From NCBI GenBank assembly GCA_049511795.1, contig JBEKXS010000001.1:58514-122513 (forward strand): 64,000 nt of DNA. Reading direction: 5' to 3'. Shown piece by piece: positions 7,276 through 44,617 of this stretch; the stretch's first letter is position 1, and the number at the start of each line of letters is the position of its first letter. The translations under genes were made by a program, and so were the position numbers. The DNA is from Candidatus Pacearchaeota archaeon. Lineage in GTDB: Archaea > Nanobdellota > Nanobdellia > Pacearchaeales > GW2011-AR1. The notes under the pieces were generated by a model, which saw only the letters and a program-made list of their open reading frames with translations, did no database searches and was not told the origin of the DNA.

Positions 7276-7896
7276 ATGATATTAAAAACCCAAAGATTAA
7301 TCTTAAGAAAGCCGAAAATTTCTGACTGGAAGGACATTGTTGAAGGGTTAAAGGATGTTAGCGTTGCAGAGGGTTTGGAAGAAATCCCCCATCCATATAA
7401 GAAAAAAGATGCATTAATTTGGATAAAAAAAACGATTGAAAGATGGAAAAAAAAGAAAAAAGAAGTTTATACTTTTATGATAGAACTAAAATCGGAAAAA
7501 AAGATTATTGGTGGTATAGGACTACATAAAGTTGATAAATTTGTAGGAACTGCGGGAACAGGCTCATGGATAAACAAAAAATACTGGAGAAAAGGTTATG
7601 TTACAGAAGCTAAAATTGCTGTGAATGAATTTGCTTTTAACAAGTTAAAATTAAGAAAGCTTTATTCCTATGTTTATACAGATAACAAGGCCTCAAATAG
7701 AACACAGAAGAGTATGGAGTATAAATTTGAAGGCTGCTCAAAAAAAGGGTCAAGAACCAGAGCAACTGGAAAGATAAAAGATGTCAATATATATGGTCTT
7801 TTCAAAGAAGATTGGAAAAGAAATCTTCCAAAACTTAAGAAGAAATTAAATGAAAAAATAAGAAAACTGGAAAAAAATGACAATGAAAGATTTTGA
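7276..7896 (+). CDS. GNAT-family N-acetyltransferase (RimJ/RimL-like)
   Basis: N-terminal RLILRKPKISD, then a GGIGLHKVD and GYVTEA...AFNKLKLRKL acetyl-CoA binding pattern. Confidence 0.5.
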   Translation: MILKTQRLILRKPKISDWKDIVEGLKDVSVAEGLEEIPHPYKKKDALIWIKKTIERWKKKKKEVYTFMIELKSEKKIIGGIGLHKVDKFVGTAGTGSWINKKYWRKGYVTEAKIAVNEFAFNKLKLRKLYSYVYTDNKASNRTQKSMEYKFEGCSKKGSRTRATGKIKDVNIYGLFKEDWKRNLPKLKKKLNEKIRKLEKNDNERF

Positions 7897-9094
7897 CAAA
7901 AAAATAAAGGCATATGCACTGAAAAATGCAATTGCACATGATGGGAAAGCACAGACAGGCAGTGTTATTTCTTCGCTTTTCAACGACGGCTTGAAACCAG
8001 AAGATGTAAAAAAATATGCAAAAGAAATCAATAAGACTATTGAAGAAGTAAATAAATTACCTTTGGATAAGCAAAAAGAGGAATTTGAACAGTTTCAAAA
8101 AGTTGTCAGCCACAGAGAAGGGCGTGAGGGTCTTCCTGAACTTCCTGGAGCTAAAAAAGGAAAAGTAATAATGCGATTTGCTCCATCGCCATCTGGTCCA
8201 TTCCATGTTGGTCATGCTCTTACAGGCAGCTTGTCATATCTTTTTGTGAAGAAATACGGCGGAATATTTTATGTAAGAATTGAAGACACAAATCCTGAGA
8301 ATATTTATCCTCAGGCATATGACATGATAAAAAAGGAATCAAAGTGGCTTTTCCCTGGGAAATTCCTGAAAATAATAATTCAGTCAGACAGAATGAAAAT
8401 TTATTACAATCTGGCGGAAAAATTGATAAAAAAAGATGTTGCATATGTCTGCACATGCTCACAAGAAGAATTCAAGAAATTTGTAGATAATAAAAAAGAA
8501 TGCCCTTGCAGAGGAATCAGCCCCAAAGAAAACATGGAGCGATGGAAGAAAATGCTTGACAAAAAAGGCTACAAAGAAGGTGAAGCTGTTTTAAGATTCA
8601 AATCAGACATGCATGACAAGAACCCTGCAATGCGTGATTTTCCGCTTGCAAGAATAAATTTAGCAGCACATGCAAGGCAGGGAATCAAATATAGGGTTTG
8701 GCCATTGATGAATTTGGCTGTAACTGCAGATGATATTGATTTGAAGATGACTCATATAATAAGGGCAAAAGATCATAGGGACAATGCAGAAAGGCAGAAA
8801 AGAATTTACATTGCGCTTGGATTGAAGGCAAAGGTTCCCTGGACAGGATTTTTGGGAAGAATAAAATTCACAGATTTGGAGCTTTCTGCGACAAAAATGC
8901 GACAGGCAATTGACGCAGGAGAATACAAAGGATGGGATGACCCAAGGCTTCCAACAATTGCATCAATCATGAAGAAAGGGTACAAGCCTTCTGCTTTCTG
9001 GAAGTTTGCAGAGAGAATCGGGCTGTCTGAAAATGACAAAGTGATGGACAAGCATGAATTTTTCAGGCTTTTGGATGATTTTAATCGAGGATAA
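7877..9094 (+). CDS. gltX: Glutamyl-tRNA synthetase-like class I aaRS catalytic core with a ~95-aa N-terminal extension. No C-terminal anticodon-binding domain.
   Basis: RFAPSPSGPFHVGHA HIGH motif and a Glx-RS catalytic-domain pattern. Only 405 aa. The ORF ends where the anticodon-binding domains normally begin. Confidence 0.55.
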   Translation: MTMKDFDKKIKAYALKNAIAHDGKAQTGSVISSLFNDGLKPEDVKKYAKEINKTIEEVNKLPLDKQKEEFEQFQKVVSHREGREGLPELPGAKKGKVIMRFAPSPSGPFHVGHALTGSLSYLFVKKYGGIFYVRIEDTNPENIYPQAYDMIKKESKWLFPGKFLKIIIQSDRMKIYYNLAEKLIKKDVAYVCTCSQEEFKKFVDNKKECPCRGISPKENMERWKKMLDKKGYKEGEAVLRFKSDMHDKNPAMRDFPLARINLAAHARQGIKYRVWPLMNLAVTADDIDLKMTHIIRAKDHRDNAERQKRIYIALGLKAKVPWTGFLGRIKFTDLELSATKMRQAIDAGEYKGWDDPRLPTIASIMKKGYKPSAFWKFAERIGLSENDKVMDKHEFFRLLDDFNRG

Positions 9095-38198: not shown

Positions 38199-38273
38199 GG
38201 CTCCGTAGCTCAGCATGGATAGAGCACCGGACTTTTAATCCGGGTGTCGTGGGTTCAAATCCCATCGGGGCCA
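38199..38273 (+). tRNA. tRNA-Lys (UUU)
   Basis: Perfect cloverleaf: acceptor GGCTCCG/CGGGGCC, D-stem GCTC/GAGC, anticodon arm CCGGA-CTTTTAA-TCCGG, T-arm GTGGG-TTCAAAT-CCCAT, discriminator A. Confidence 0.8.
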
Positions 38274-39410: not shown

Positions 39411-39520
39411 GGGAGTTTTTTCATGATTTTTGGCAAATTCCTCTAAATCGCGACGGGACAGGGTTCTGTAAAGTTATCGGTTGGTAGAAAAGGTTAAAAG
39501 TTGGGATTCTTTAGAATTTT

Positions 39521-39703
39521 ATGGTTACGCCGAGCAGGGTTAGGATGAACAAATTAAGGCATAAGCACGGAATGATAGCCAAAGAAAAACAGGCAGAAAA
39601 CGAAGAAAATAAGTCTTGGAGAGAAAGAAGTTCTAAATCAATATCTCAAGAAGAACATCAAGAAAGACTAAATAAACTGAAAGAAATTGGATTATTAAAA
39701 TGA
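39521..39703 (+). CDS. Small highly charged protein, translationally coupled (ATGA) to the downstream gene
   Basis: 60 aa, K/E/R-rich. Its stop overlaps the start of 39700..40338. Confidence 0.3.
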   Translation: MVTPSRVRMNKLRHKHGMIAKEKQAENEENKSWRERSSKSISQEEHQERLNKLKEIGLLK

Positions 39704-40338
39704 GTGAAAGTAAAGCAAAGGCAAAACTGAACGGAGATGTAATAAAACTACCCCTTAGTTTTTCTCAAGGCAGTATTAGGGTAGCAGACAATAAAGGAAA
39801 TCACTTTCAAAAACCAACACAGCAAATTATGGATAAGGAATTGTATATTGAATGGATGATAACTAATGATGAAATTAAATTGTTGTCAAAACTTATCCCC
39901 AAGAAAAATATAGGAGATTTGATAAAAGTGTTACAAAGAATAAATAAGTTTGCAGAAGCAACGAAATATTCTAAAAGAGAATCAGATAGAGGAGAAAAAG
40001 TTATTGCTGAATTTGAGGGCTTTAAGATATATCATTATACAGATGATTTTAATTCTTTTGAGAAAGTTCTTGGTTCTACATTAAAAGTAAGATTAACATT
40101 TAAGTTAGGAGATTATGGTGTTACATCCCATCCTCATATGTATGTTCTTGTCCCATTCAATTTTAAGACATTAAAAATAAAAAATATCTCTGGGAATGTT
40201 AAGATAGGAGAACCTCTTGGAAAAAAGTGTTTTGCAGAACTAAATTTGACAGAAGAAGAACTTAAAGAGATAATATTAACACTTGCTCACGCTTCAAGTA
40301 ATCATAGAAATGATTTGATTAAAGTTCTTGAATCCTGA
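39700..40338 (+). CDS. Hypothetical protein, candidate restriction endonuclease partner of the adjacent methyltransferase
   Basis: Convergent with, and overlapping by 20 nt, the 3' end of the MTase gene. No clear catalytic motif. Confidence 0.25.
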   Translation: MSESKAKAKLNGDVIKLPLSFSQGSIRVADNKGNHFQKPTQQIMDKELYIEWMITNDEIKLLSKLIPKKNIGDLIKVLQRINKFAEATKYSKRESDRGEKVIAEFEGFKIYHYTDDFNSFEKVLGSTLKVRLTFKLGDYGVTSHPHMYVLVPFNFKTLKIKNISGNVKIGEPLGKKCFAELNLTEEELKEIILTLAHASSNHRNDLIKVLES

Positions 40339-41455
40339 AATCCAAAACATCATTTTTCTTTATTGACTTACTGCCTACTCTATGGGTTATGTTTCTAAAA
40401 TGTTCTAAATTCTTATTAAGGGCTTTACAAACAGATTCTTTTATCTTTTTATTGCTATTGAACTCATCTTTAAATTTAAAGACAAAAAACATATCATTCA
40501 AAACATCTTCTTTGACATTAATTAACCCTGATTTTCCCACGCTTACATTACCCACTCTTGTAACTGCAAGAGCATAATCCTTAACATCTTTTTCTTTTGG
40601 TATTTCTTGGTGTTGTAAAATGTTAGCCCCTGAAATATTGTTTTTTGTATAATCTCTTTGATAATGGGCTTTTTCATTAGATAAGAAATCAAATAAAGGT
40701 TTTCCTTCTTGATGGTTTTTTATTTTGTATAAAAATGTTTTTGGGATTAATTCTTCTGTTAGTAATAGATTTTTGTCTAAAACTTCTTTAACATTCTGTC
40801 CATCTTCATAAAGGATTATTATTTTATCTCTGAATTTATCTATATTTGTAAAGATAGCAAAACAGCAAGGTATAGGTTCTTCAACCATATTCTTACTATT
40901 CTGATAAATTATTATTGTGCTAAATCTGTTTATGATTTCTTTCTTAACTTCTTTATTTTTCTTTGCTATGAAAAAGGAGATAGGCAAAACAAAAGCTATA
41001 CTTGAATTTTCATCTTTAAGATGTTTTATAGATTTCAAAATAAAAGCATTTTCTATTTGAACTTTCTCTTTTTTCTTGAAGGATTCTGTTAAATAATCTT
41101 CATTATTCTTATACTTCTTTGGGAAAAAATAGCTGTCTTTGACATTATATTTTGTAAATGGTGGATTTCCTATAATCAAATCAAACTTTTTATCTAAATC
41201 AAACAAAAAGAAATCACAGGGCTTACTTGTCAGATTCTCATCTATTTCACACTCTTGAATATTGTTAAAACCCTGCTCTTGCATTCCCTTTACAAAGTTT
41301 CTTGTCCCTGCTGATGGTTCTAAAACATTTATATCTCTATTGTAATCTTTATATTCTAAAAGAAGTCTAATTACTCTATCAACAACATTTCTTTTAGTGA
41401 AATATTGTCCCCAAACAAATTTCTTATCGCCCATATCTATTTTATGCTTTGACAT
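40319..41455 (-). CDS. N6-adenine DNA methyltransferase (gamma-class, TaqI-like order: motif I then IGNPPF) with C-terminal target-recognition domain
   Basis: Motif I VLEPSAGTRNF. Motif IV IGNPPF. About 180-aa C-terminal variable domain. The annotated start lies 3 nt from the transposase stop, so the real start may be the internal Met at about 41434. Confidence 0.6.
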   Translation of the reverse strand: MSKHKIDMGDKKFVWGQYFTKRNVVDRVIRLLLEYKDYNRDINVLEPSAGTRNFVKGMQEQGFNNIQECEIDENLTSKPCDFFLFDLDKKFDLIIGNPPFTKYNVKDSYFFPKKYKNNEDYLTESFKKKEKVQIENAFILKSIKHLKDENSSIAFVLPISFFIAKKNKEVKKEIINRFSTIIIYQNSKNMVEEPIPCCFAIFTNIDKFRDKIIILYEDGQNVKEVLDKNLLLTEELIPKTFLYKIKNHQEGKPLFDFLSNEKAHYQRDYTKNNISGANILQHQEIPKEKDVKDYALAVTRVGNVSVGKSGLINVKEDVLNDMFFVFKFKDEFNSNKKIKESVCKALNKNLEHFRNITHRVGSKSIKKNDVLDFRIQEL

Positions 41456-42505
41456 TTTTTAACTCTTTTGACTTGCTAAGTATATCAAGTCAAGCCATTT
41501 ATTTTTCCCAAGATTAAGATTAACCCCTGCTTGTTCAATAGGAGTTTTATTTATGCCTTGATGGATTCTTATAAAATTGTAATAAACAACAAACAAAGAC
41601 AAAATAGCTTCTGCACTTTCAGGGCTTTTGAAATTTCTCATAACCTTGATTCTTGCCCTGATAGTACCTTGTATTCTTTCTATTATGTTATTTCTTCTGT
41701 CTTCACTTGCTTTTAATCTTGTATAAACTTCTCTATCTAATTTTCTGTTTCTTGAACCCCAAACTTTTCTATATGCTTTCTTATAAGCAAAAGCTGAATC
41801 TGTGAATAATGATAATGGTTTATTCTGTGCTTTGAAGAAAAGCATTTTAGCACTCTTTGTATCTCTTTTTGTTGAGTAATGAGAAGAAACCAAAACTCTT
41901 GTTTCCTTATCTATCATATCCCAAAAATAATGCTGTTCATTCTTACATTTAACAAAAATCTCATCTGCGTGATAAATTCTTGAAAGATTTAAGTCAAATT
42001 TTCTCTGAAAATCTTTTAACAATATAGCATATCTTCTTATCCAGTTTAGAACAGCTTGATGGCTTACTTGATAATCTGAAAACTGGTTAAAATGCTCTTT
42101 GACTTTTCTTAAACTCAACCCATTCATATAAAGAGAAACGCACTGGGTTATTACTTCTCTTTTGTGCTTTGTTTTGAAGAAACCATCATCAACCACAAAA
42201 CATTCAGAACAGGAATTACATTTCCATCTTTGCTTTTTTGTGGTATGGTTGAATCTGAAACCCCACTTAATAACTTCTTCAGATTTACAATAAGGACAAA
42301 CCTTCGGCTTGATAACCGAAACTAATTTATAGTTCTGTGTCTTCTGATTTTCGTTATTCATTTTGCGATGGGTAACCTGCCCTTCGGGGCAGTCATATTT
42401 ATTTGTATAAATATTAGATTAGTAAATAACTAATCTATTTAAATGTTTCTATGAGAAGTAATTAGGCACTACAATTCACTATTATTAGGCACTACAACAA
42501 GGGGA
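41400..42505 (-). mobile_element. IS6-family insertion sequence. Exact ends not resolved. Region bounded by the MTase start and GGCACTACAA repeats.
   Basis: Transposase ORF. Upstream GC-rich UUCG hairpin (42377..42392). IS26-IR-like GGCACTACAA copies at 42465..42474 and 42488..42497. Confidence 0.35.
41459..42361 (-). CDS. tnp: IS6-family DDE transposase with N-terminal zinc-ribbon
   Basis: CPYC...CNSCSEC zinc finger. YHADEIFVK, DKETRVLVSSHYSTKRDTKSAKMLF, FTDSAFAYKKAYRKV and RNFKSPESAEAILSLFVVYYNFIR blocks parallel the IS26 Tnp26 blocks WHMDETYVK, DSRGRTVDFYLSSRRNSKAAYRFL, NTDKAPAY, GFKSMKTAYATIKGIEVMRAL. Confidence 0.7.
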   Translation of the reverse strand: MNNENQKTQNYKLVSVIKPKVCPYCKSEEVIKWGFRFNHTTKKQRWKCNSCSECFVVDDGFFKTKHKREVITQCVSLYMNGLSLRKVKEHFNQFSDYQVSHQAVLNWIRRYAILLKDFQRKFDLNLSRIYHADEIFVKCKNEQHYFWDMIDKETRVLVSSHYSTKRDTKSAKMLFFKAQNKPLSLFTDSAFAYKKAYRKVWGSRNRKLDREVYTRLKASEDRRNNIIERIQGTIRARIKVMRNFKSPESAEAILSLFVVYYNFIRIHQGINKTPIEQAGVNLNLGKNKWLDLIYLASQKS

Positions 42506-42696
42506 GAAAGTGTCATAAATATCTGTTCGGCAAAAATCTCGTCAGATTCTTTCCTTAATTTTTTATTAAGAAATTTATCAAGTTTTTTCTGATAGTTTGG
42601 AATATCTATGCCGTACTTTTTATCAAATTCATTAGTAAGTTCAATAATTTTTTCCCTCATTTCTACAACCTTCAAGTCATTTTCTTTCCAGTTCAT
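42469..42696 (-). pseudogene. Truncated hypothetical gene (75 aa) whose C-terminus is encoded by the GGCACTACAA repeats. Probable remnant of the partner of the upstream AbrB-like gene.
   Basis: Start overlaps the stop of the AbrB-like ORF (ATGA). The last 12 codons read through both repeat copies. Confidence 0.3.
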
Positions 42697-42851
42697 TTTT
42701 TCTTTTTCTCCTTTTCTGTTTTCCTGATTTTTACTTCAAGAATATCTCCAAGTTCCAAGCCCAATTTTTCTATTGTTTCTATTGGAATCGTAATTACTTT
42801 GGAACTACCCCCATCCCTGATTTTTGCGTCAAATTGGCTTTCAGTTTCCAT
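42696..42851 (-). CDS. AbrB/SpoVT-MazE-like small DNA-binding protein (antitoxin-like), 51 aa
   Basis: Hand-translated: METESQFDAKIRDGGSSKVITIPIETIEKLGLELGDILEVKIRKTEKEKKK. Swapped-hairpin AbrB-type pattern (GSSKVITIP...LGL..GD.L). Confidence 0.4.
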
Positions 42852-42955
42852 AATATATCTTAAACCTTTTTTAACAAGATTAAATATACATTTGACTATA
42901 AAAAACTTGTGTTTTTACAAAAGATTTAAAAGTAGTCATTTACTAACCTTTCTAT

Positions 42956-43216
42956 ATGGCAAAGGCAATACCAAAGTGGGTACAAGAAAGATTGTCAAGA
43001 CTTTGGAAAAAATATGAGGGGAAAGACATAACATATGAAAATATAGAAAAAACTTTGACTATGGATGATAAAAATACAATAAATGCTTTTTTGAATGAAC
43101 TCAAAACAGCAGGATGGATAGAAGTTAAATCAAATGAATCAGACGCAAGAAAGAAAATATATATTTTAAAATCTCCAAGCGTGGTTATGTTGGAAATAAA
43201 AAAGGAAGAAAAATGA
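42956..43216 (+). CDS. Winged-helix DNA-binding protein
   Basis: 86 aa. ...INAFLNELKTAGWIEVK... recognition helix plus wing. Translationally coupled (ATGA) to the downstream gene. Confidence 0.4.
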   Translation: MAKAIPKWVQERLSRLWKKYEGKDITYENIEKTLTMDDKNTINAFLNELKTAGWIEVKSNESDARKKIYILKSPSVVMLEIKKEEK

Positions 43217-44331
43217 TAATACACGATGTTATTACTGAGGCAGTTGATAAAGATTCAAGACTGGTTTTGAAAAGAATAAAAACTTCTGAAGGAGATTTTT
43301 CAAACAGAAAACTTGCTATTACAAACTTTATGTATAATTGTGAAAGGGACAGGATGAAATATGGACAACCATTATTTAATGGAATTTTCCAAACGTGTCA
43401 TATCAGATTTGATAGGATTCTTAATGACTGGGATTATCTTGGGCTTGAAAACTCCAAAAAACACGCACAGAAAAACAATCGTATATTTTTGCCTTACAAA
43501 CAAAGAAATGAAGAACAGCTATCCCAAATGAAATGGGAAAATTCTGTTAGCGATTTCAATACTATGGTTGGAAAGGTTGATAATGTTCCATTTGTCCTGC
43601 CTCTTTATGCAACCCTTAATGATTGGAAAAAATACAGGGCAAACGCTATTTCAATATTAAACCAAAATCAAACATTAATTCCTATAATCTCATCAAAGCA
43701 TAATGTTTCACATTTTCCAACAATAATAAAATATGAAAAAGGAAAAGATAATCTTATAGGGATAAATTCTTATGAATTGAGTGACATAACAGAAAGAACA
43801 AACCTTTCATATTTGAGAGCAATAAACAGCGATACAAAAACAGGTGATAAAACTTCTTTATTTGTAAATTTCAATTATCCAAGAATCCTTACAAGATTAT
43901 CAAATATCGCTGGTTCTTTTGCATTTACTTGCTTTGCAGGAGATATTTTTTCTGAAAGAGCAAGTTTCCCACAAGGAATGAAAAGAGAATCTGTTAATCT
44001 TATGTTTGACAGAAAGCCAGAAGAATATTCTTTTTATGATTCTAAAGAAAAGAAATTCAATAAATCCTTGCCTCAGAAAGAATGGTATGGTGTTGATTTA
44101 ACCAAAAGTTCTATGGCTAACGTTTCAGTTCTTCACGGATTAAGTGGTTATCAAGTAATAAAATGTTTAAGTCACATTAAACAACAAGATGATTTAGATT
44201 TAATTAATGCTTTAATATTGAATCAGCAAGATGTTTTGAAATTTATGAAAAATTATACTGGTTGGAGTGTATTCTTAGACAGAATGGTTATCCCATCTTC
44301 ACAAACGCAACAAACCCTCTTAAAATTCTAA
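43213..44331 (+). CDS. Hypothetical protein (372 aa), no recognisable domain
   Basis: Good coding structure. No motif matched from memory. Confidence 0.35.
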   Translation: MIIHDVITEAVDKDSRLVLKRIKTSEGDFSNRKLAITNFMYNCERDRMKYGQPLFNGIFQTCHIRFDRILNDWDYLGLENSKKHAQKNNRIFLPYKQRNEEQLSQMKWENSVSDFNTMVGKVDNVPFVLPLYATLNDWKKYRANAISILNQNQTLIPIISSKHNVSHFPTIIKYEKGKDNLIGINSYELSDITERTNLSYLRAINSDTKTGDKTSLFVNFNYPRILTRLSNIAGSFAFTCFAGDIFSERASFPQGMKRESVNLMFDRKPEEYSFYDSKEKKFNKSLPQKEWYGVDLTKSSMANVSVLHGLSGYQVIKCLSHIKQQDDLDLINALILNQQDVLKFMKNYTGWSVFLDRMVIPSSQTQQTLLKF

Positions 44332-44617
44332 TAGTCACGTGACACAAGGAAAAAACATTAAGGGGTTGCTTGTTCTTTCCAAGCAAGTAAATCCCTTAAT
44401 GCCTTCTTAAAAATATTAATTTTCCATTCCTTTTAAACTTTTATTCAATTTTCACCAACCGAAGATTTGACAGAACCACGGGACAGAAACATTTTTAAAC
44501 CAAATTTTGATATCTTTTATTATTGATGAGTTGTCAAAACTCTTCTGGAAAGTGCCTAAAACCCCCTGCCAGAAAAATTAAATTCACCGTCGGTAACTGT
44601 CTAAAACTGCCAAAAAT

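Follow-up and report, generated by a model that had tools for sequence, protein, structure and literature searches.

Genes and borders of the element

The 64,000-nucleotide (nt) stretch of contig JBEKXS010000001.1 from a Candidatus Pacearchaeota archaeon, referred to throughout as the window, holds on its reverse strand a gene for a 300-amino-acid (aa) transposase (41459..42361) and, directly downstream of it, a gene for a DNA methyltransferase (40319..41455), the two lying within a segment of 5,016 bp and eight genes (39462..44477) that is the subject of the present analysis. The transposase is of the DDE type with an N-terminal CxxC...CxxC zinc ribbon, and its placement in the insertion sequence (IS) family IS6, which an earlier sequence-only reading of the window had proposed, is borne out by matches to NCBIfam NF033587 (model positions 4-202 of 202) and to Pfam DDE_Tnp_IS240 (PF13610, 1.5e-19), by the best tblastn matches in 72,556 plasmids, which are all annotated as IS6-family transposases (27-34% identity), and by residues D133, D188, E228 and R235 (the E plus seven), which are invariant in 45 homologs. 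The zinc ribbon is of the IS1/IS1595 type (NCBIfam NF050000, 33.1 against a cutoff of 28). The methyltransferase, of 378 aa, is a gamma-class N6-adenine enzyme, Eco57I-like, with an NPPF motif and a C-terminal target-recognition part (Pfam PF07669 at 2.2e-10; PADLOC MTase_II at 1.1e-19). Between the transposase stop codon TAA (41461-41459) and the methyltransferase ATG (41455-41453) stands only the triplet AAA, so that stop and spacer together occupy 41456..41461 of the reverse strand, and the 3-nt distance that had first drawn attention to the locus is thereby confirmed.

On the forward strand, the methyltransferase gene is met tail-to-tail, with a 20-nt 3' overlap, by a gene for a 212-aa protein (39700..40338; the R gene) that is predicted from its sequence and modelled fold to be a homolog of the R.PabI family of restriction DNA glycosylases. 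The fold is predicted at 92 on the predicted local distance difference test (pLDDT), and a profile of 44 homologs matches R.PabI chains over the full length (E 1.6e-7), with two motifs in register, YYIEW and the C-terminal AS..H.ND, the ASkkHrND of the profile facing ASETHKND of R.PabI. H202 is invariant and D205 of the window protein follows it three residues later, and we take the aligned His and Asp to be the catalytic H211 and D214 of R.PabI. The layout of PabI systems is likewise found here, as the R gene (39700..40338, forward) and the gene of a gamma methyltransferase with NPPF (40319..41455, reverse) converge. A glycosylase activity directed at GTAC may therefore be predicted for the R protein on the ground of this homology.

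The borders of the segment lie 2–3 kb from the junction of transposase and methyltransferase. Within the window the motif GGTTCTGTN7TYGGTTGG is present exactly twice, in inverted orientation, at 39462 and 44477 (0.04 matches expected; two matches in 0 of 100 shuffles), and the imperfect terminal inverted repeats, GGTTCTGT-N7-TCGGTTGG, read inward as GGTTCTGTAAAGTTATCGGTTGGT at the distal end, the one away from the transposase start (39462..39485, forward strand), and as GGTTCTGTCAAATCTTCGGTTGGT at the end upstream of the transposase (44454..44477, reverse strand), with identity at 20 of 24 positions. Directly outside both repeats is a perfect 9-bp direct repeat, ACGGGACAG, the left copy of the target-site duplication at 39453..39461 and the right copy at 44478..44486. 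Insertion would have taken place between a small open reading frame (ORF) of 85 aa (p85) and rpoH, creating this duplication, and the reconstructed pre-insertion p85-rpoH junction would read ...AATCGCG-ACGGGACAG-AAACATTTT..., with a single copy of the 9-mer. Both ends show the GG tips and the cTGTt and caaa motifs of IS6 ends, here as GGTTCTGT(C/A)AA..., and islands of 87-100% nucleotide identity to many other loci recur at 39462-39501 and 44445-44477 despite different intervening genes. The 40 nt of the former island are 97-100% identical in three elements with different cargo (L025, L026, L027) and 83-94% identical in L024, L031, L047 and L072, and at the other border the alignments to L026, L028, L034, L037, L047 and L072 terminate exactly at 44477. 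Guanine-plus-cytosine (GC) content falls to 0.28-0.31 across 40-44 kb, against 0.33-0.39 in neighbouring windows, and this dip coincides with the segment.

The sequence-only reading had found no clean terminal inverted repeats and had placed the right end of the IS inside or over the 5' end of the methyltransferase gene. The first statement holds for the surroundings of the transposase gene, where nothing but AT-rich matches attributable to chance turned up within a few hundred nt, whether in the window or at 12 homologous loci, but it fails further out, and the second is contradicted by ends that make the methyltransferase internal cargo. A pair of arms at 41395-41414, inside the methyltransferase gene, and 42462-42481 (75% complementary) was rejected as an IS end, being unconserved while the family-wide ends lie elsewhere, and a 14-nt direct repeat, ATTAGGCACTACAA, with an IS26-like GGCAC was rejected because it points in the wrong direction and is missing from relatives. 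This repeat is itself perfect (42461-42474 and 42484-42497, spaced 23 nt, at the 3' end of a 75-aa ORF) and is probably a local duplication. Membership of the IS1 family, considered for the zinc ribbon and the 9-bp duplication, was also rejected, as NF033558 reaches 59.3 bits against a cutoff of 100 and only NF050000 passes. It is proposed, with high confidence, that 39462..44477 is a single transposon of 5,016 bp which is moved by its own transposase, carries a PabI-type restriction-modification (R-M) system as cargo and represents a hitherto undescribed branch of IS6 in DPANN archaea.

Related elements and their conserved features

Diverged homologs were compared at 13 genome loci and 55 metagenome loci (given here with L numbers), all of them from DPANN archaea (Pacearchaeota, Woesearchaeota, Nanoarchaeota and Aenigmatarchaeota). 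In about 45 loci the transposase homolog is bounded by the motif GGTTCTGT-N7-T(C/T)GGTTG(G/A), and the 25 complete elements, 2,134-5,472 bp in length, all carry cargo. The transposase is likely to be the mobilising enzyme of the family, since it is the only protein cluster common to all 25. Perfect 8-bp duplications flank 14 independent elements (L012, L013, L014, L017, L019, L021, L022, L049, L050, L060, L061, L068, L069 and L074) and 9-bp duplications flank six (the window element, L026, L027, L028, L047 and L038), the 8- and 9-bp sequences all being different; because the extra base varies among elements, the ninth base is not part of the end. L026, L027, L028 and L047 are close relatives of the window element, whereas the 14 elements with 8 bp are more distant from it. 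A complete genome, that of Pacearchaeota Pace33H (L011), has a block of about 5 kb in common with the window and different flanks.

The cargo of the family is varied but consists predominantly of R-M genes, with a methyltransferase in 16 of the 25 complete elements (unscanned members being counted by BLAST cluster membership). It includes a C5 methyltransferase with an RE_Bsp6I endonuclease (L027), a ThaI endonuclease with an N6_N4 methyltransferase (L060), a His-Me finger endonuclease (His_Me_b4a2/Endonuclease_7/SH3_17 domains) with a methyltransferase (L068), an HNH endonuclease with a methyltransferase (L022), a methyltransferase fused to Mrr_cat (L061), fusion proteins of N6_Mtase and Methylase_S of 790-815 aa (L015, L020) and an N6_N4 methyltransferase with an ORF that shows a PD-ExK-like motif as judged by eye (L012), besides PIN toxins, a RelA/SpoT-like protein, a resolvase-like nuclease and proteases. 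The window element is one member of a DPANN-wide transposon family carrying R-M systems. An ORF of 205 aa in L060 (1944-2561 in element coordinates) has its match confined to the C-terminal half of 3-dehydroquinate synthase II (PF01959, 6e-63) and could be a piece of a host gene that the element has captured.

Further observations concern the ends and the rearrangement of family members. The cargo gene next to the distal end, usually the R gene, reads inward in 7 of 7 inspected elements (the window element, L012, L025, L026, L027, L028 and L047), and this orientation, along with the near identity of the 40 nt despite different cargo, suggests that an inward promoter is built into the distal end at 39462-39501. 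L048 combines a left flank shared with L050 and a right flank shared with L049, two elements with 8-bp duplications of their own; this indicates either recombination between two copies or an IS26-like replicative or intramolecular event. In L061, 8 bp separate a full element from a 290-bp unit (7728-8017) that resembles a miniature inverted-repeat transposable element (MITE), having an end of the family type on each side but no ORF. The two share the target AAATGAGG, of which the duplication in L060 is the reverse complement. The copy closest to the window transposase (96% aa identity; L024 760-1666 and L029 5365-6088) is decayed by a stop after codon 11; its similarity to the window extends from exactly the ATG to 3 nt past the stop, the sequence before the ATG has given way entirely to unrelated DNA, and of the two ends just the distal one is retained.

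The junction between transposase and methyltransferase recurs in the relatives. A distance of 3-4 nt from stop to ATG is found with the Eco57I-like class in the window, L011, L031, L038 and L047, with the N6_N4 class in L025 and L028, and with the C5 class in L027; in L020, which has a fourth class, the stop and start overlap as ATGA, and in L012 the spacer is 15 nt with GGAGG. The recurrence of the 3–4 nt junction with three unrelated methyltransferase classes points to a conserved operon slot. The first codons are also alike across unrelated classes (M-A-K in L011, L027, L028 and L038; M-S-K in the window and L047; M-R-K in L025), which hints either at cargo exchange just inside the methyltransferase gene or at a constraint of reinitiation on these codons. 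Among the five elements with the Eco57I-like class, the window element, L047 and L038 lie at different genomic sites, each with its own 9-bp target duplication, L011 has different flanking DNA without an intact duplication, and for L031 both ends were not recovered. Since junction and first codons are kept in these five diverged elements, the abutment of stop and ATG is probably no insertion scar but a junction conserved within an operon, for which translational coupling is the best explanation. An internal Met near 41434 had been put forward as the real methyltransferase start; this codon (M8) exists and is conserved, as is M1 (41455), and the comparison favours M1, with translational coupling, because M1 always follows the transposase stop by 3-4 nt.

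A hairpin, CTGCCC-CGAA-GGGCAG on the sense (reverse) strand, occupies 42377..42392 and is separated from the transposase ATG downstream by 15 nt, and the sequence-only reading was right to single it out (in its antisense form, CTGCCC-TTCG-GGGCAG). It has a perfect 6-bp stem; on the antisense strand its loop is C(UUCG)G, a very stable type, with a T-rich run after it. In 24 distinct loci a CGAA-loop hairpin precedes the ATG by 9-25 nt. In a loop-anchored alignment of 22 sequences, all 7 pairs show changes on both sides and 94.8% of cells are paired, a percentage, unlike the compensatory changes at fixed position, that is inflated by the filtering of the sequences for at least 4 complementary pairs; the covariation score was reached by 0 of 500 shuffles, and slid partner columns were only 21-58% paired. 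It is this covariation that constitutes the evidence for the hairpin, as the z-scores of single-sequence folding are only modest (-1.8 sense, -2.3 antisense). The region folds on both strands, more stably in antisense (-15.7 against -11.6 kcal/mol in sense), and had no match in Rfam. A role as a leader structure that modulates expression of transposase and methyltransferase is somewhat favoured, and the hairpin could alternatively terminate antisense transcripts coming from the convergent R gene, an assignment that we consider the less probable of the two by a modest degree.

Upstream of the hairpin, a TATA-like box, TTTAAATA (42443-42436), and a 21-nt palindrome, AGATTAGTTATTTACTAATCT (42436-42416), occupy 42416..42443 on the reverse strand at a conserved position. 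Box and palindrome (core TTAGTTAnTnAACTAA) are kept in L011, L026, L031, L037, L047 and L072, which share with the window the genes for an AbrB/MazE-like protein, a 75-aa protein and a winged-helix protein, and they are probably the promoter and operator of the transposase and methyltransferase genes, the operator serving a regulator encoded by the element. The 75-aa ORF (42469..42696, reverse strand) is the upstream neighbour of the transposase gene, with homologs at the same position in L011, L026, L031, L037, L047 and L072 (PHROG 21593). It is preceded by a gene for a 52-aa DNA-binding protein of AbrB/MazE type (SpoVT fold; 42693..42851, reverse strand; PF04014, 5.3e-6), conserved in L026, L031 and L037. 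On the forward strand are an 86-aa winged-helix DNA-binding protein (42956..43216; sub-threshold NCBIfam matches to MsvR and Sta1) and, conserved together with it, a 372-aa TIM-barrel protein with a fold like that of tRNA/DNA-guanine transglycosylases (43213..44331), regarded as cargo. At the distal end, a highly charged 60-aa ORF (39521..39703, forward strand) ends in a 4-nt overlap (ATGA) with the R gene start; it has homologs in L011 and L038, and family searches with it returned no match.

Alternative readings

Several observations weigh against the proposed transposon, or against its being active at present. The IS6 score of the transposase barely exceeds the cutoff (125.9 bits against 125), and the window element has a 9-bp duplication in place of the 8 bp of IS6. 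GTAC is only mildly under-represented in the window (observed/expected ratio, O/E, 0.71), an avoidance that is weak as a proxy for the specificity of the R protein, and the hairpin can be read on either strand, as a leader structure or as an antisense terminator. The family includes decaying members, as shown by copies without duplications (L011, L015, L018, L020 and L025) and by copies with broken transposases (L020, L022 and L024/L029), and L020 retains the methyltransferase coupling despite its broken transposase, so that coupling does not protect the transposase reading frame. As to mobility, all 19-24 contigs of the source population carry the element at the same place, and the 19 public contigs with an identical transposase have one and the same context; when other surroundings were sought for this transposase, for RpoH and for the 85-aa neighbour, every contig again gave that context and no empty site; empty sites reconstructed for 25 elements and searched against all fetched loci gave none; and there is no second copy in the window and none was found for the source genome. 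These results speak against current activity of the window element, which is single-copy and fixed and for which no empty site was found. Additional copies, from which the sequence-only reading had expected the ends and an 8-bp duplication to emerge, were not to be had in the source genome, and it was the relatives that defined the ends and, for the window element, a duplication of 9 bp. A separate observation on word composition is that GATC is strongly under-represented in the whole window (60 observed against 160 expected, O/E 0.38), far beyond GTAC, which suggests that the genome has been exposed to a restriction system specific for GATC.

The single copy, fixed in every population contig, might instead be a domesticated or immobile transposase within a chromosomal defence operon, the inverted repeats and the duplication being relics of an old insertion. 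The nearest homologs, no more than 85% identical save for the decayed 96% copy, would agree with this, as would the two transposase copies of Pace33H, which are only about 63% alike. Against this stand a perfect target duplication, two intact ends and invariant DDE-R residues. The 20 related elements with perfect duplications lie at different sites; cargo varies among closely related transposases; and both the mixed flanks of L048 and the MITE-like derivative in L061 argue against immobility. Domestication or decay, which was to be inferred had there been neither a second copy nor inverted repeats, is therefore unlikely, given that inverted repeats and a duplication exist and that some 20 related elements have fresh duplications.

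Far less credible is the idea that a compact IS, roughly 1 kb long, landed immediately upstream of a methyltransferase gene already resident there, its end overlapping the 5' end of that gene, which would then be expressed from an IS-borne promoter or start at the internal Met. This explanation draws on the 3-nt gap between transposase stop and methyltransferase ATG and on the nature of canonical IS6 elements, which measure 0.7-0.9 kb and often create hybrid promoters (PMC7986276). However, inverted repeats are lacking within a few hundred nt of the gene in the window and at 12 homologous loci, the family-wide ends lie at 39462 and 44477, and unrelated classes of methyltransferase fill the same slot. 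A chance insertion beside a resident gene is further contradicted by the junction and the M-S/A-K start, which are kept in five diverged elements, three of them at different sites with their own duplications. What survives of the IS-borne promoter is that the methyltransferase is probably expressed from the promoter of the transposase, as a cargo gene and not as a resident one. That the block is some other mobile element (an integrative element or a plasmid or virus remnant) moved by another enzyme, with the IS6-like gene as passenger, would suit a low-GC island with regulators and defence genes, most of its genes being without known function, but is the least probable explanation of all, as family scans of its genes reveal no integrase, Rep or other recombinase, no tRNA stands at its borders (the nearest, tRNA-Lys, is at 38199-38273), short inverted repeats with 8/9-bp duplications are the signature of a DDE transposon, and the transposase is the only gene shared by the family.

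Proposed mechanism and relation to known systems

The proposed transposon allows a model to be drawn of how its genes may act together. The transposase, through its zinc ribbon, helix-turn-helix (HTH) and DDE domains, would recognise the bipartite ends, consisting of the GG tip, the CTGT motif and an inner CGGTTGGT block, and would move the whole unit including the cargo. The pathway would probably resemble that of IS6, the stagger measuring 9 bp in the subclade of the window element. Transposase and methyltransferase genes would form one operon under the TATA-like promoter, the palindromic operator and a structured 5' leader, and the methyltransferase would be translated by termination-reinitiation 3 nt past the transposase stop, such that methylation would accompany any expression of the element. 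The R gene, which reads inward, would be driven from the conserved distal end. An addictive R-M pair combined with this coupling would stabilise the element and penalise the loss of transcription of the transposase operon.

In comparison with described IS6 elements, which are about 800 bp long with 8-bp repeats and of which only ISDsp3 has a passenger gene (PMC7986276), the window element shows both likenesses and departures. As in IS26, IS257, ISCpe7, IS240 and the archaeal clades A of the family, the transposase combines DDE and HTH parts with a K/R seven residues past the catalytic E. At the ends, GG tips are combined with a CTGT..AAA motif, in agreement with the IS6 consensus of GG tips and cTGTt and caaa motifs (PMC7986276), and most relatives of the window element make 8-bp duplications. 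Copies without duplications and exchanged flanks are also as expected for cointegrate or recombination pathways, and the former, together with L048 and its flanks from L049 and L050, offer indirect hints of replicative cointegrate transposition. The window element differs from IS6 elements of 0.7-0.9 kb (1.76 kb at most) with a single transposase gene in its length of 5,016 bp and its eight ORFs, in the 9-bp duplication of its subclade, in its bipartite inverted repeat of about 24 nt and in cargo that is enclosed by a single pair of inverted repeats and not by two IS copies. Its zinc-ribbon transposase is archaeal and 300 aa long, whereas the zinc-finger clade of IS6 is clostridial (PMC7986276), with 340-350 aa in clade h of ISfinder. 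Since it fails on compactness and on the 8-bp repeat, yet otherwise resembles IS6 with cargo, the element is filed here as a cargo-carrying IS6 variant and not as a canonical member. An IS6-type transposase moving passenger genes is also known from IS26 pseudo-compound transposons, but these have two directly repeated IS copies; the window was considered for this type and rejected, having one transposase gene and one pair of ends with motifs in inverted orientation.

The R-M genes themselves agree with archaeal PabI systems, in which a gamma-type adenine methyltransferase gene lies tail-to-tail with R (PMC4615327). With R.PabI, R.HpyAXII and R.CcoLI the window pair shares the R.PabI fold, the aligned motifs and a gamma methyltransferase with a C-terminal recognition domain, and with the archaeal PabI lineage it shares the tail-to-tail arrangement, at an identity of only about 20% between the 212-aa protein and the R.PabI family. 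PabI systems have been shown to be mobile, in a paper whose main text does not contain the word "transposase" (PMC4615327). Unlike the PabI systems described, the window pair lies inside a transposon that bears a transposase, to which the methyltransferase would be coupled. Bacterial R-M units with imperfect inverted repeats and 8-bp duplications have been reported with the mobilising enzyme unidentified; they are mostly without a transposase (one has a probably inactive transposase-like gene) and none is archaeal (Furuta et al., 2010, PMC2853133). The window element resembles them in having R-M genes between imperfect inverted repeats and a short target duplication, and differs in carrying a transposase and in belonging to a family whose varied R-M cargo is available for comparison.

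It may tentatively be suggested, at something less than even confidence, that a DPANN lineage of IS6-derived transposons serves as a vehicle for R-M, addiction and defence systems, in which a docking slot after the transposase stop fuses an incoming methyltransferase into the transposase operon, while R-M addiction enforces retention and transcription of the element and ensures methylation. For annotation, a transposase that abuts a gene need not signal an insertion scar. For the biology of IS elements, a cargo-carrying branch would join a family described as almost free of cargo within single elements, and this new IS6 branch would be archaeal, with a zinc ribbon and with a subclade that makes 9-bp duplications. 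The movement of R-M systems between genomes is a long-standing question, for which the vehicle here is explicit and testable, a single IS6-type transposase with one pair of ends being associated with PabI-, Bsp6I-, ThaI-, His-Me-, HNH- and Type IIG-like systems in the tiny genomes of DPANN archaea. If true, the proposal would mean that transposase and R-M systems are mechanistically allied, and it would provide a concrete answer to how R-M systems move.

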